DNA of 64,000 nt from a virus (IMGVR_UViG_3300045988_111187:1-64000); one strand, 5' to 3'; positions 4,180 through 55,851 are shown, counted from the first letter of the stretch. A program made the numbers and translations. Notes: a model not told the origin generated them from the sequence alone.

Positions 4180-4502
4180 AGAAGGATATGTTTACAAAAG
4201 AAGAAAGATTATTTATATGGAAACAAGTATATGATATAATCGATAGGTCAGAGAATGGGCAATACATATGCATTGCATTAAAAAATGTAGTATTTTATTT
4301 TTTCAAAACACATAAAGAAATAGAATTTATGAGTTTAGACGAAATGGTGAGAATATATTTCCCGGAATTGAGGGCAAGGAGAAGTATGGCTACAGAACCA
4401 GAGGGAATATGGAGGATATATGGATGGTTTGGTTGTATTAGTTCAGAAACGAAGGAGGTGAGACTGAATATTGTAAAAGATATTATAAAAGAATTAGAAT
4501 AG
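4176..4502 (+). CDS. hypothetical protein (108 aa)
   Basis: ORF coupled to the upstream gene. Confidence 0.5.
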   Translation: MKKDMFTKEERLFIWKQVYDIIDRSENGQYICIALKNVVFYFFKTHKEIEFMSLDEMVRIYFPELRARRSMATEPEGIWRIYGWFGCISSETKEVRLNIVKDIIKELE

Positions 4503-4630
4503 TATTTTTGTTAACCTATTTTATTCATCAAATTAAGTTTTGGGTTTTGGCATGTCGGTTCGTGAGGATAGGCATGCCTATTTTTATGTCATAGAGGGAT
4601 GACGCGGCGTGCCGGCATGTATGTGCCGGT

Positions 4631-21465: not shown

Positions 21466-21938
21466 TGATAAGAAGTCATGGCTTATGCCAGGCTTGCAGG
21501 AGCAAAGAGTTGACTCCGAAGAAAAAAGACAGAATTACATCCATTAAAAACAGCAGCAAGAAGAAAAAGTTAGAGAACCCGGATTTATCCGGGTTTTTTC
21601 GTCTTATGTTGGAGGAGTTGAGTACTATTCGAATGTCTATGACTGGTAAAGCTATTCATTTTCCTACAGTATGTAACATCTGTCACATACTTCCGAAAAG
21701 GATATATAAGTCGGTTGCTACTTGCAGGGATAATATAGTTTTCCTTCATGAATCGGAGCATACGGTATTCGACATGTATCTTGACCGGATGGAATTTGAT
21801 AAACTTGAAACAGAATTTCCTTTTGTGTGGAAGTATGCGGTAAAGAAGGTACTGGATATGGAAAGCAGAGGAATGATCAAGGAAAGAGGTAGGTTGATTA
21901 TTGAAATAATTGATAGGTATGATAGAAGAAAAGATTAA
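21420..21938 (+). CDS. zinc-ribbon hypothetical protein (172 aa)
   Basis: CEKCG ... CQAC at the N-terminus. Confidence 0.5.
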   Translation: MEKKLYICEKCGRKVMIRSHGLCQACRSKELTPKKKDRITSIKNSSKKKKLENPDLSGFFRLMLEELSTIRMSMTGKAIHFPTVCNICHILPKRIYKSVATCRDNIVFLHESEHTVFDMYLDRMEFDKLETEFPFVWKYAVKKVLDMESRGMIKERGRLIIEIIDRYDRRKD

Positions 21939-31418: not shown

Positions 31419-31558
31419 TAATTGAAGAAATAAAAGCAGCATTCATAGATTTCCTGCCGGCAGGAACAGTGCTTTACTAATTACGATATTTTTAACATGG
31501 ATTTTGGACAAGATTTAGAACCAGAAGAACTGACCAAGCATTATGATCGGTGTTATAA

Positions 31559-31861
31559 CCCCAAATAGTATTAAACCAATATAATTCTATTATAAAAGTT
31601 TAATACATCTCTTTCAGAGATCGGGTTATTAGCCTAAGCCTTGAAACAAAGGCTACGTTATTTGAGAATAGATAGTTACCAAGGAATGTTTATCCAAGTT
31701 TCTTGCTCTAAGGATGGTGATTAAACAGGAGTAGTGTATTTGACGAAACAGTGTTGCCATTATATAAAACCTCTTATAACATTGGCGATGGGTACTTACA
31801 GGAGAAATCCTGACTTATCCCTAACGGGATTTACATCTACCAAGGAGACCAAAAGGTCTCC
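31559..31861 (+). ncRNA. orphan omega-RNA-like structured RNA, paralog of the region 5' of iscB; no adjacent nuclease gene
   Basis: about 270 nt align with the reverse complement of 52767-53032, including fully compensatory stem changes (tacgga/tccgta vs caaggaa/tttcttg; gcaagc/gcttgc vs atggtg/tgccat); ends in the hairpin ggagacc-aaaa-ggtctcc (31844-31861). Confidence 0.6.
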
Positions 31862-31918
31862 GAGGGGATGTATTAAAACGGATAAATAACTTTAAATATA
31901 TTTAATAGAATATGAGAT

Positions 31919-32266
31919 ATGGAATTGATTTTGAAACAGAAGAAGAGGAGGATGAAGAGTATGACTGACGAGGAATTTGTATTGGATAATGAGAAAAGGG
32001 TTGTTGTAAGAAAAAGAATATCTTATTTAAGCAAAGGGGATAAAGTGTGGATTGTGTCTTCCGACGGGTATCTGCTACACACGGACGTGGTTAGAGCCGA
32101 CCGCGGCCGATCTTATGTGGATATAGACGGTATCCTGTATTGGAAACGAGGATTGGATGGCAAGCATCGTAATCGTAATAACTACATGCAGTTTGCCATG
32201 ACACCAGAAGACGGTAAGAAGTATGTCGTATATTACCCGGAAGGATTTAAAGACAATGACTTATGA
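31919..32266 (+). CDS. hypothetical protein (115 aa)
   Basis: ORF; 4-nt overlap. Confidence 0.5.
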   Translation: MELILKQKKRRMKSMTDEEFVLDNEKRVVVRKRISYLSKGDKVWIVSSDGYLLHTDVVRADRGRSYVDIDGILYWKRGLDGKHRNRNNYMQFAMTPEDGKKYVVYYPEGFKDNDL

Positions 32267-51173: not shown

Positions 51174-51479
51174 TTAATATAAATCTTCCGAATACAATTG
51201 TTCTCTAATGGCATTCCTATCTACTACCATTTCTTGATTATTGTTTCTAACAAGTTCAGATGCTTCCTCTCTTGTTAGAAACCGGTTCTTGCTTGTCAAA
51301 AATCCTTGAATACTACGGTTTTTATGAGCAATACCATAAGCTGCAAACTGAGAAATGATAGAACAATGTCTCAATCCACAGAACACGGCGCCGGATGGTA
51401 TATTGGTGGGCTGATGAGGACGCTTCTTGCCGTCCTGCACCCAGATGGCCGCGCATATTACTATTTCTTTATTATACAT
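51174..51479 (-). CDS. hypothetical protein (101 aa)
   Basis: ORF; starts 37 nt after the iscB stop. Confidence 0.45.
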   Translation of the reverse strand: MYNKEIVICAAIWVQDGKKRPHQPTNIPSGAVFCGLRHCSIISQFAAYGIAHKNRSIQGFLTSKNRFLTREEASELVRNNNQEMVVDRNAIREQLYSEDLY

Positions 51480-51516
51480 GATACGTTTTTCTATTAAATT
51501 TATTAAATCCGTTCAT

Positions 51517-52737
51517 TTACTTTAATATAATCGGATGCCTCTTCCCTCTAACGAGTTTAAACTTTTTGCGTGAAACATCTTTTGAATTTTCTCCGTTGAA
51601 ATCCCTGATATTGAAACTCCCTGATTTTCTCCTTCCATAAACAAAGAATATTTTATTGTTATACAACACTTTATCAAACAACCTAAAACCGAAAACCTCA
51701 AAAGGAGCTTGATTGTTTTTCTTCTTCCCCCCTTTTAAAATTTTCATTTTATGTATTTGTCTATTATGTCTACGAATTAAACGTTTTAAATATTGACGTT
51801 CGATTCGTTTCGCATTAATATTCTTAGAAATGACAAACGCGTCGGATGTATGGGATTTTTCAATCCCATATTTAATCCGATTATGTTTCGTAATGTAACC
51901 AAACGTCATAAAAACTCTGTCGTATCTGGATTTTAACTCTTCATACAACCTCCATTTCATAATTCCCATTACGGCTGCGTCGCGAAGCGACTTGCCTCTT
52001 CTGATCTTTAAATCTATATTACCTTTATGGTATTCTTTGTGACATGTTTCACATAAAGTTATAAGATTAGAAGGGGAATCCCCTCCGGTTTTTCGAGACT
52101 CAATATGATGAACATTCAGTATAGAATCTTTTGACTTGCCTTTACAATACTGGCATTTATGTCCATCTCTTGCTAAAACATACTCCCTTGTGTTCCAAAA
52201 CTCAAGTTGATCACCTTCCTGGTATTCTTTACCTGATATCTCAGGATTCTTAATCTTTTGAGTATCGAATTGAGCTACTTCAATAACAATACGAGATATT
52301 GGTAATATAGAGCAAACATTTTCAACAACACGAATATGGGCGTCTACTTTGTATTTCACCGAAGGTGCTATCCATCCTGGACGCTTGCTTTTTACTCTGT
52401 TATCGAAACGAGGTTTTCTATACCTCAACCTATTCCGTCTTGTTCTTCGTAGCTCCCTTCTGGTAGACAAAAGATCTACAATGTCATTTCTGAGGATTAC
52501 TTCACTACTGTAAAGTTCTTTGCTTTTCGTTGTAGCTGATAGACCAACGTGTTTGGTTCCAGCATCAACGCCTAATACAATTTCTTGTTTGTAACTATCG
52601 GATATGTACGTCAATCGGATGGTAAACGGACATAGGTTTACAACGACTGCTTTGTTTGATTTGAGCAGTCTCCTAACCTTTCCATGTCTTGTTGTTGGCA
52701 TCAGAGGTTTACCATCTATGTCTTGTACATACACCAT
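51517..52737 (-). CDS. iscB: IscB RNA-guided nuclease (IS200/IS605 OMEGA system), 406 aa
   Basis: PLMP domain (DGKPLMPTTRHGKVRRLL); RuvC-I LGVDAGTKHVGLSA; Arg-rich bridge helix; RuvC-II IVIEVAQFD; HNH CQYC ... HHIESRKTGGDSPSNLITLCETCH; RuvC-III HTSDAFV. Confidence 0.9.
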   Translation of the reverse strand: MVYVQDIDGKPLMPTTRHGKVRRLLKSNKAVVVNLCPFTIRLTYISDSYKQEIVLGVDAGTKHVGLSATTKSKELYSSEVILRNDIVDLLSTRRELRRTRRNRLRYRKPRFDNRVKSKRPGWIAPSVKYKVDAHIRVVENVCSILPISRIVIEVAQFDTQKIKNPEISGKEYQEGDQLEFWNTREYVLARDGHKCQYCKGKSKDSILNVHHIESRKTGGDSPSNLITLCETCHKEYHKGNIDLKIRRGKSLRDAAVMGIMKWRLYEELKSRYDRVFMTFGYITKHNRIKYGIEKSHTSDAFVISKNINAKRIERQYLKRLIRRHNRQIHKMKILKGGKKKNNQAPFEVFGFRLFDKVLYNNKIFFVYGRRKSGSFNIRDFNGENSKDVSRKKFKLVRGKRHPIILK

Positions 52738-52740
52738 ATC

Positions 52741-53032
52741 TACAAACGTTTTTAATGTTTATTCAACATAAGTCAGGAATATTTCATCCTGTTAGTACCC
52801 ATCGCCAATGTTATAAGAGGTTTTTCGCAAGCAACACTGAAACCCGAATACAATCTCTGTTTAATCGCTTGCCTTAGAGCTACGGACTTGGACAAACATC
52901 CGTAGGTAACTATCTATTCTCAAATAACGTAGCCTTCGTTTCAAGGCTTAGGCTAATATCCGGACCATTTCTGGTACATTAAAACCTTATAATGGAATTA
53001 TATTGTTTTAATGTTATTTCGGATATTGAAAG
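52741..53032 (-). ncRNA. putative omega-RNA of IscB (5' of iscB, same strand)
   Basis: lies where IscB omega-RNAs are encoded; homologous to 31559-31861, with covarying stems. Confidence 0.65.
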
Positions 53033-53276
53033 TATGGTATCCATCAGAAACCTCTCCCATGTCTCCAGGTTCTGCTTTAGGTTCAGGATGATTCGGATAG
53101 CAGTAGTCCACTGATGCTTCTAACACTGACTTTACGTGTTCTATTATCCTCGCAACATCATCATGTTTAAAAAAATGCTTAAATCTTTCAACGAATTTAA
53201 TATCTTCGTTGATTGCTGATTCGAACTCTTCTTTTGTCATTGCTCTAACTACATCTTTAAAATCTTTTAATTCCAT
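52998..53276 (-). CDS. hypothetical protein (92 aa)
   Basis: ORF; its last about 11 codons lie inside the region conserved with the orphan RNA. Confidence 0.45.
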   Translation of the reverse strand: MELKDFKDVVRAMTKEEFESAINEDIKFVERFKHFFKHDDVARIIEHVKSVLEASVDYCYPNHPEPKAEPGDMGEVSDGYHTFNIRNNIKTI

Positions 53277-54137: not shown

Positions 54138-54352
54138 GATTTCGCTGAAACATTCATATAATACGGTACATCTACCACATCTCTTCTATGAAGTTCCTTC
54201 TCAAAATAAGAAACCATATAGGTATTTTTACCTTCGTGATCAGGCCTGGGATCAAAGCATTCAAAAACGAATCTTGTTCTACCTTCAAGATGACCAAACA
54301 TGAAAACAAACTCACCACCGTATCTTTTGTTAGCCAATTCTTCTACTGTCAT
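54134..54352 (-). CDS. hypothetical protein (72 aa)
   Basis: ORF; 4-nt overlap chain. Confidence 0.45.
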   Translation of the reverse strand: MTVEELANKRYGGEFVFMFGHLEGRTRFVFECFDPRPDHEGKNTYMVSYFEKELHRRDVVDVPYYMNVSAKS

Positions 54353-54576: not shown

Positions 54577-54611
54577 AGTTGGAAATTTTATAGTAAAACA
54601 TAATAATTACT

Positions 54612-55753
54612 ACTCCATTATAGACGCTTCATTGAGATTCGTAACCTCATTTCTCTGCATCCGATTATAGAGGATATCAACTCCTACCCTCTGTATGTTT
54701 ATTGCAGCATTCAAATCTCTATCTATTTCAATGCTGCAATTTTCACACTTGAAAACTCTATCTGATAAAGTTAAGTCTTCTTTCTTCCATCCGCATTTGG
54801 AACACGTCTTTGATGATGGAAAAGAACCTGTCTATTACGACAAGTTCTTTTCCATACCAATTACATTTGTATTCCAACATGCTTCTAAACATTGAGAAAC
54901 TTGTATCGGATATAGCTTTAGCCAATTTGTGATTCGATAACATTCCAGAAACATTTAAATCCTCTATGCAAATAACATCATAATTATTTACAAGTGAAGT
55001 GGTAACATTATGAAGAAAGTTGTTTCTCCTATTAGCAATCTTGTTATACAATCTTGCTATTTTTATTTTATTCTTTCTATGCCTGTTACTTCCTTTACTC
55101 TTTCTACTTAAATGTCTTTGTATTTTAGCTATTTCAGATTGTTTCTCTCTGAAAAACTTGATATTATCAATCACAATTCCGTCAGACAATGTAGCAAAAG
55201 ATTTCAATCCTAAATCTATACCAACCGTTTTACCAGTCTTTCCCTTGTGATGCATGACCGTATCTACGAGAATAGAAACAAAGTACTGATTGCAACAATT
55301 TTTAGATATCGTACATGACAGCATCTTTGAATTATTAGGTATATTCCTATCAATAGACATCTTAACCCATCCTATTTTCTCTAATCTTATCTTATTATCT
55401 TTTAATGAGAATTTTTGATTAGGTAATCTATAAGATTGGTTTCCAGATTTCTTTTTAAAAGAAGGTCTGCCTATTTTCTTCTTTCTTGTTTTAGAGAAAA
55501 ACTGGTTGGTAATTTCTTGAAAATCCCTTATCTTTTGTTGTATAGCAGCGGCAGAGATTTCATTCAACCACGGCTTGTCAATTATTAAATCAGATTTAAT
55601 AATGATTTTAGGTTTAGGATTACTATCCTTATCATAAGAATTGAAAAATTCGACATTAGCATTCCAAATTACACGAATACATCCAAAAGTCTTAGAAAGC
55701 AACCCCTTCTGAGACTTATTAGGATATATTCTGTATTTGAAAGCTTTATGCAT
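54612..55753 (-). pseudogene. tnpB: TnpB (IS200/IS605 OrfB) with a 1-nt frameshift before the zinc finger
   Basis: N-terminal FKYRIYPNKSQ; RuvC-I GIDLGLKSFA; RuvC-II ICIEDLNV; after a +1 shift at the run at 54830-54833 the frame reads [13 protein letters not shown] ... CENC ... [10 protein letters not shown] (zinc finger and RuvC-III) to a stop at 54612. Confidence 0.8.
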
Positions 55754-55851
55754 CGTTTAATTATTTAAAAGCAAATATAGTTACAATTCTATGATTATAC
55801 AATATTCATAAATTAATTAGATTTAAAATAATACAATGTATATTAAAATAA

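Follow-up and report, generated by a model that had tools for sequence, protein, structure and literature searches.

Does a gene for an RNA-guided nuclease that lies tightly packed among phage genes work for the phage that carries it, or for itself? The question is raised by a 64,000-nucleotide stretch of viral DNA (IMGVR_UViG_3300045988_111187:1-64000; hereafter the window, meaning the whole stretch), which carries an iscB gene with its omega RNA at 51480-53026 on the minus strand and a second, orphan omega RNA elsewhere. We found the locus to be a non-autonomous IscB element of the textbook kind, for which no new biology is needed, and a 364-bp derivative without a gene, at 31555-31918, to be a member of its family. 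The best reading of the data, to which we assign a probability of roughly 0.8, is that of a non-autonomous ISC (IscB-encoding IS200/IS605-family) transposon residing in gut phages, which would persist there as a selfish homing element.

The comparisons below draw on about 230 loci from one family of ~150-kb human-gut phages, collected in IMG/VR scans; they include 80 loci anchored on the 101-aa gene downstream of iscB, 64 with the omega RNA core and 80 anchored on the gene that follows the orphan. The iscB locus of the window comprises the following features.

51517-52737, minus strand: iscB, 406 aa, intact (Pfam, PDB alignment, dN/dS, PHROG)
52750-53026, minus strand: omega RNA (HEARO) scaffold, from the Rfam match and P1 pairing, 3' limit approximate; right end of the element on the TnpA strand
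53027-53042, minus strand: guide segment of the iscB-linked RNA, GGATACCATACTTTCA, 16 nt, in the left flank of the element
51480-51516, minus strand: 3' terminal segment of the element (left end on the TnpA strand), ending in ...AATAGAAAAACGTATC
51477-51479, minus strand: ATG directly after the element, candidate target-adjacent motif (TAM) and TnpA target motif, start codon for the 101-aa gene; reads CAT on the complementary strand
52998-53276, minus strand: 92-aa open reading frame (ORF), remnant holding the first ~84 codons of a 252-aa WDGH and Tad2-like gene (blastn against OR575929.1)

The IscB nuclease and its omega RNA

The first-pass annotation, made from the sequence without database searches, had recognized a complete IscB with all its hallmarks, and the profile searches bear this out. 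In the 406-aa ORF, RRXRR (the IscB N-terminal/RuvC region) is matched across the whole Pfam model (positions 1-174 of 174, 3e-61) and an HNH domain is found with 5e-11; solved chains of the OgeuIscB type align with residues 2-333 (PDB, 3e-43), and phrog_119, an IscB-like PHROG family, matches the protein with 1.5e-64. The translation contains DGKPLMPT, i.e., the PLMP motif, and the segments GVDAG, IEVAQ, NVHHIE, SNLITLCETCH and SHTSDAF pair in the alignment with matching segments of the solved chains. We take GVDAG, IEVAQ, HHIE...N...H and SHTSDAF to carry the catalytic residues of RuvC-I, RuvC-II, HNH and RuvC-III, respectively. These presumed residues (D, E and H/D of RuvC; H, N and H of HNH) do not change across 23 intact copies, and the overall organization is that of IscB: an N-terminal PLMP domain, a split RuvC with an arginine-rich bridge helix and an inserted HNH. 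The window ORF is a full-length IscB whose putative catalytic residues are intact. Its stop codon lies 37 nt from the start of the next gene, exactly as first reported.

Upstream of iscB, on the same strand, a structured RNA conserved with the orphan copy had been proposed, and Rfam recovers both. HEARO (RF02033) matches 52791-53001 on the minus strand over the full model length with 105 bits and 31555-31799 on the plus strand with 96 bits, the gathering score being 83. In the 24 iscB-linked copies, the conserved sequence begins exactly at ATATCCGAAATAACATT, i.e., at window position 53026. This boundary, conserved in copies with differing upstream DNA, lies directly 3' of the guide (53042-53027), and the 16 nt 5' of each scaffold change along with the flank. 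The 5' end is paired in the P1 stem, where ATATCCG (53026-53020) faces CGGATAT just 5' of TAGCC; at the equivalent place the orphan reads ATAACCC/GGGTTAT, a compensatory change. Across linked and orphan stems, seven base pairs carry changes on both sides in an alignment of 22 sequences. Such compensatory changes show the predicted omega RNA to be a bona fide HEARO RNA. Two other starts of the scaffold were discarded: 53001, suggested by Rfam, since the 24-copy alignment and the P1 covariation both give 53026 and the Rfam model had misaligned the 5' end, and 53032, the start given in the first-pass annotation, which was likewise replaced by 53026.

Variants of the omega RNA 5' domain were observed in several relatives (L015, L025, L027 and L035, at about 4440-4530; L016, L060, L097 and L106). 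One variant begins ATAATTGTGAATAAT, which pairs with CGATTAT, and another has a perfect palindrome (GGCTAATATCCGGACCAT/ATGGTCCGGATATTAGCC) in place of the 5' domain. Stem modules have also been exchanged between linked and orphan RNAs in the alignment, a pattern that points to gene conversion among copies.

Element ends and the ATG rule

On the right side, all occupied loci read ...AATAGAAAAACGTATC directly followed by ATG, and empty loci read ...AAATTTATAGTC followed by ATG. On the other side, at least 13 distinct upstream sequences, distributed across ~2.3 kb of accessory genes, are found next to the omega-RNA end. In intact relatives, the flank of each of the 13 iscB-linked scaffold-anchored junction types (13/13) is found again and continues with ATG, and the same holds for all five orphan junction types whose intact counterpart could be located among the loci. 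Comparing guide-proximal segments with their flanks, a check for a TAM that had been proposed at the outset, in this way gave ATG at all 18 testable scaffold-anchored junction types. Right flanks also begin with ATG: that of the iscB element, those of seven distinct orphan flanks, and that of the copy on L226, an unrelated genome described below. The background frequency of ATG is 2.75% of positions, and the probability of G after AT is 0.27. The fourth base after the element can be A, G, T or C; only ATG is conserved. As the junction types and the right flanks all adjoin it, ATG is the target motif, and we infer from the 18 junction types and nine right flanks that it also acts as the TAM.

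Five junctions with a breakpoint inside the element (L021, L032, L049, L057 and L061) served as controls. Three of them (L032, L057 and L061) clearly do not adjoin ATG; the other two (L021 and L049) are ambiguous, with ATG 0-2 nt past the blast breakpoint. Two simpler accounts of the junctions were dropped. Random deletion or AT microhomology does not account for a G as the third base in 18/18 cases, because the element itself starts with ATA; in addition, three of the five controls clearly lack ATG and two are ambiguous. Separate insertion at each ATG is at odds with a right junction that is identical everywhere. The junction diversity instead looks like the outcome of TAM-anchored flank deletions, each of which would re-program the guide. 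Near both ends of the element, stems of the ATCCG...CGGAT type can be recognized by eye; these are candidates for the imperfect subterminal hairpins that a TnpA would bind.

At the boundary between guide and scaffold, small changes were observed in L003, L008/L010/L014, L013 and L005 (junction ~4450-4460), namely 4-nt losses (CTGT, TTGT), a 14-nt loss and, in two types, a G-to-T change at position -1. Slippage, scars of self-cutting or disarming of guides may be the cause.

The deletion in the window and the targets of its guide

The window itself carries one such junction. The nearest deposited genome is that of csAssE-Sib (OR575929.1), a 151-kb human-gut phage with flanks about 90% identical to those of the window, for which our literature search found no descriptive paper. 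We determined that 773 bp of csAssE-Sib are gone in the window, from codon ~85 of a 252-aa gene through the end of the 91-aa gene that follows it in relatives, and that the omega RNA is joined exactly where ...TTTCA/ATGAAT stood in relatives (the slash marks the joint). The full-length 252-aa gene is found in a relative (L062:4935-5700), and Pfam recognizes in its product WDGH (2e-36) and Tad2-like (Thoeris anti-defense 2-like, 1e-11) domains. It is this gene of which the 92-aa ORF is the remnant; the WDGH/Tad2-like gene lost in the window is a putative anti-defence gene. Since the truncated gene now reads on into the RNA, the two overlap, as the first-pass annotation had seen correctly apart from its start of the RNA. 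A precise empty site in related genomes, which the same annotation had named as the mark of a recent selfish insertion, exists for the orphan; where iscB is inserted, the match to relatives is exact on the right side and differs on the left by the 773-bp deletion, relatives without this copy carrying 773 extra bases there. Insertion at a short specific motif, without target-site duplication and with empty sites in relatives, is a trait of ISC/IS200-IS605 transposons, and it is seen here.

The iscB-linked guide derives from codons ~79-84 of the WDGH/Tad2-like gene. Counting 0-1 mismatch, the guide sequence followed by ATG is present in 54 of the 80 relatives. In the 64-kb window we found no self-target: the 16-mer occurs only at its own locus, where it is followed by ATATCC, not ATG. 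Because ATATCC replaces ATG after the guide, the element's own locus would be safe. Perfect targets with ATG for three other junction types are held by the window (at 54276, 53836 and 53620). All guides match sister-phage alleles only, and no host target was found. The window appears to be one flank-deletion variant, which would now target in its relatives the very gene that is mostly removed here.

The orphan mini-element

The second omega RNA of the window belongs to a mini-element with two features.

31555-31918, plus strand: orphan mini-element, 364 bp, with omega RNA scaffold, hairpin and terminal segment, without iscB
31539-31554, plus strand: orphan guide segment, CATTATGATCGGTGTT, immediately 5' of the scaffold, which starts at 31555

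Its hairpin reads GGAGACC-AAAA-GGTCTCC, its terminal segment resembles the 3' end of the iscB element, and it is directly followed by the ATG at 31919, which is the start of a 115-aa ORF. Empty sites, CATTATGATCAGTGTT directly joined to ATGGAATTG, are precise, lack a duplication and occur in about 60 of the 80 relatives: the occupied arrangement ...CAGTGTT/element/ATGGAATTG corresponds to ...CAGTGTT/ATGGAATTG when empty. Orphan types O4 and O7 have empty sites as well. RNAs of the orphan type are located at six or more different sites, each with a right flank that begins with ATG, and in 40 copies iscB was never found behind them. In some relatives a single genome holds two or three omega RNAs whose guides differ. 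Orphans also occur in phages without iscB at the usual site; for example, on contig 102995 the iscB site (L031) is empty and two orphans (L102 and L138) are present.

The window additionally holds, at 21902-21917 on the plus strand, an empty site for orphan type O2, GAAATAATTGATAGGT followed by ATGATAG, which differs at two mismatches, near the ATG, from the O2 guide of relatives (GAAATAATTGACAGAT). In another relative (L057:4650-4760), iscB has lost the omega scaffold that normally precedes it, the junction not being beside ATG, and is still an intact 406-aa ORF; an orphan (L113) is located on the same 151-kb contig (IMGVR_UViG_3300029422_000001). This contig looks like a natural case of an IscB left with a trans RNA only.

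Age, selection and distribution of iscB

Among the 80 nearest relatives, iscB was found at the same site in 36 and is missing from 44, and a frameshift or truncation affects about 10 of these 36 copies. The 23 intact copies at this site give a ratio of non-synonymous to synonymous divergence (dN/dS) of 0.11 at a synonymous divergence (dS) of 0.25, compared with a dN/dS of 0.07 at a dS of 0.34 for a neighbouring gene. These rates show that iscB is under purifying selection. Conserved copies in this number (dN/dS 0.11, dS about 0.25), next to some ten broken ones and a presence in 36/80, make it an old resident, probably functional yet dispensable, and not a fresh insertion, in agreement with what had first been concluded. 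Pairwise distances for the element, the near flank and the far flank place iscB-plus and iscB-minus phages intermixed on the backbone.

As for copies outside the phage family, the closest element (83% nucleotide identity, L226:4700-6260) is encoded on a 20-kb contig labelled Vibrio olivae (NZ_JBHMEP010000019.1). It has a HEARO match and stands directly before an ATG, between flanks that bear no relation to the window; its last ~15 nt (AACGCAAAAAAAGGAA) resemble its left flank (AACGCAAAAAGGAA). The Vibrio label may reflect contamination or a different phage. The next closest relative is a 70%-identical protein on a phage-like contig of a Phocaeicola metagenome-assembled genome. In a scan of genome contigs for a bacterial host copy, TnpA was absent from both the L226 and the Phocaeicola contig.

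Transposase and other IS605 elements

The absence of TnpA from the 64-kb window, asserted earlier, was upheld by tblastn with IS200/IS608 probes and with the TnpA of a relative, the best E-value being about 1. An autonomous form would hold a Y1/HUH TnpA inside the element; this one does not and represents the non-autonomous form. In relatives, tnpA (Y1_Tnp, 1e-38) with a divergent 379-aa tnpB forms an autonomous IS605 that occupies two or more positions; the window is empty at these positions.

L252, 2358-4009: tnpA-tnpB IS605, insertion point equivalent to window 25761/25764
L092, 2450-2586: tnpA-tnpB IS605, near window 56210

Given these insertions, a Y1 transposase circulates in the phage family.

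A separate TnpB-only element of the IS605 type is located in the window at 54578-55797 (minus strand). Its 331-aa ORF (54758-55753) matches OrfB_IS605 and is shortened by a 1-nt insertion relative to L022, in which tnpB is intact (an open frame of 381 codons, ~380 aa when counted from the ATG); the remaining TNB/zinc-finger region of the window tnpB continues in another frame. Among the 80 relatives, a TnpB-only element is present at this place only in L022, and csAssE-Sib has 22 bp there.

How the element may persist

If the element is a selfish ISC transposon, its cycle could run as follows. Read-through transcription from upstream genes would produce the omega RNA, the first ~16 nt of which would be left flank. 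IscB with this RNA would cut the 16-mer followed by ATG, be it in the unoccupied allele of a co-infecting sister phage or in a TnpA excision product, and repair of the break from the occupied genome would copy the element in (homing). Its own locus would be spared by the ATATCC, in place of ATG, 3' of the guide sequence. The mini-element would use the same IscB in trans, and new ATG sites would be reached via a Y1 TnpA that is also supplied in trans. The flank deletions might arise by local re-insertion near an upstream ATG and subsequent recombination between the copies, by TnpA-mediated strand transfer with the right end as anchor, or as rare deletions that are selected since only TAM-adjacent guides can drive.

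Several observations weigh against this reading. Cleavage, transcription and homing are all deduced from sequence. The orphan guide of the window is one mismatch off every empty site seen, and the guides of L003, L008/L010/L014 and L013, i.e., those with boundary changes, adjoin ATG in 0/80 relatives (that of L005 still in 2/80). The presumed ancestral junction, with the full 773-bp segment beside the omega RNA, was not found among the 80 loci, and a two-copy intermediate flanking a segment was not seen at the iscB site among the relatives' loci; two orphan copies lie 2.1 kb apart in one relative (L125). Element distances correlate with flank distances at ~0.23, a value that does not separate vertical descent with recombination from homing. 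The tnpA-tnpB IS605 elements were considered as the source of a cognate transposase and rejected, their ends having no obvious likeness to the ISC ends.

Homing is not the only way to account for a conserved nuclease. IscB, along with its two omega RNAs, could be a domesticated weapon that the phage keeps for competition or superinfection exclusion against rivals or against host DNA, with selection acting on behalf of the phage; this is close to what the first-pass annotation had proposed, and we regard it as unlikely. Strong purifying selection on an iscB that has long stayed at one site would fit such a role, yet a homing element is equally expected to show it. It could be argued from the guides, which match genes of sister phages with the TAM in most relatives and of which two or three different ones can be carried per genome, that the system is aimed at rivals; they consist, however, only of local flank, as in any mobile ISC, and among their targets there is neither host DNA nor a rival gene that is conserved or essential. 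That L057 retains an intact iscB despite the deletion of its own omega RNA, with the orphan L113 on the same contig, and that the window iscB is intact while the nearby tnpB is frameshifted, also speaks for a use to the phage. Against it stand both transposon ends and the ATG target rule, which are retained, the lack of iscB in 44/80 of the nearest relatives and its decay in about 10/36 carriers, and the persistence of orphans in phages without iscB at this site. Domestication of the TldR or CRISPR-Cas9 type is not what the locus displays, given that the guide follows the flank, the ends are retained and presence is polymorphic with decayed copies. Of the earlier proposal, the idea of competitors as targets agrees with what the guides match, the target of the window guide with its ATG being present in 54/80 sister phages; a target in the host and a weapon owned by the phage are not supported.

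Another possibility, that the element is an inactive relic of an old, vertically inherited insertion, whose RNA copies and junctions go back to the ordinary deletions and recombination of a hypervariable accessory region and whose nuclease does nothing today, appears very improbable to us. It would suit a window without TnpA, the degraded copies in many relatives and a highly mosaic region. It is contradicted by a dN/dS of 0.11 at a dS of 0.25 with invariant catalytic motifs, and by compensatory changes in the stems of linked and orphan omega RNAs alike. Nor would ordinary deletions place 13/13 scaffold-anchored junctions exactly before ATG, when three of five control junctions clearly fall elsewhere and two are ambiguous. 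The selfish ISC transposon remains our preferred reading.

Significance

A single phage family here provides a natural data set with dozens of occupied, empty and decayed alleles and a clean inference of a 3-nt TAM, together with mini-elements that would borrow IscB in trans and 13 or more alternative guides produced by flank deletions at one site. Its variants make testable the homing of an OMEGA nuclease between co-infecting phages and the turnover of guides by local rearrangement, which so far have been mostly theoretical or plasmid-based. The locus is also an example of how an element of this kind can eliminate adjacent phage genes, among them a Tad2-like gene. In the literature searched we found no description of TAM-anchored deletions that switch the guide.

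These features open up a bolder view, which we put forward tentatively and consider rather doubtful: the IscB element could be an RNA-guided gene drive in a gut-phage lineage that re-arms itself by deletion. If true, each TAM-anchored upstream loss would create a new guide that cuts sister phages still holding the deleted DNA, and variants with a junction further upstream would convert those with a junction further downstream. Little by little the population would lose the accessory genes beside the element, here the putative anti-defence gene of the WDGH/Tad2-like type, and orphan mini-elements would add guides in trans. The family would then offer natural evidence of non-restorative phage-to-phage OMEGA homing and of guide acquisition without Cas1/Cas2.

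Comparison with known systems

ISC elements have been described to insert at N/ATGA (the slash marking the insertion point) without duplication (Kapitonov et al., 2016, PMC4810608). The window element resembles these transposons in its size (about 1.5 kb), in encoding IscB only, with no TnpA in cis, in its insertion directly 5' of ATG(A) without target-site duplication, and in the occurrence of multiple copies and short gene-less derivatives, for which trans mobilisation by a Y1 transposase is assumed. It differs from them in residing in a family of phage genomes instead of a bacterial chromosome, and in that ATG alone is conserved here, the fourth base being variable.

For IscB systems of the GstIscB/OgeuIscB OMEGA type, it has been reported that the omega RNA lying upstream of iscB is delimited by the transposon's right end, that the TAM of GstIscB is TTCAT and that tnpA is found nearby for only ~1.5% of iscB genes (Meers, 2023, PMC10055086). 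The window IscB shares with GstIscB and OgeuIscB (PMC10055086; 7UTN, 7XHT) the domain order and, by alignment, the catalytic motifs, as well as a guide taken from the flank; its candidate TAM, ATG..., is the reverse complement of the TTCAT of GstIscB (ATGAA in the iscB sense). The model of nuclease-driven homing that keeps or spreads the transposon would be common to all of them. The window protein is shorter, with 406 aa compared with 495-496 aa for chains of the OgeuIscB type, and its activity is predicted from the sequence; its omega RNA has a larger insertion in P1, which the Rfam model misaligns. Its likely target also differs, being the homologous site in a co-infecting phage (non-restorative) and not the sister chromosome after TnpA excision. 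Homing of such elements between co-infecting phages is treated as a theoretical possibility in a 2026 review (PMC13565253).

In its way of spreading, the element probably works like the free-standing homing endonucleases of T-even phages (SegF, SegB and Mob; localized marker exclusion): in both cases a nuclease gene is wedged between conserved phage genes, and the allele of a co-infecting relative would be cut and the gene copied in with adjacent markers. Unlike in SegF, SegB and Mob, recognition would occur via a guide RNA and a 3-nt motif and not via the protein, and self would be told from non-self by the presence of the element and not by sequence polymorphism; homology between the two is limited to the HNH fold.

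The orphan, in turn, is comparable to gene-less IS605 derivatives of the PATE/MITE-like kind and to stand-alone omega RNAs, as it keeps both ends and the RNA without any protein gene, is found at several sites and would depend on proteins made elsewhere. It departs from PATE/MITE-like derivatives in that each mini-element also appears to be a complete guide RNA gene, with a guide derived from its flank and stems kept by compensatory changes.

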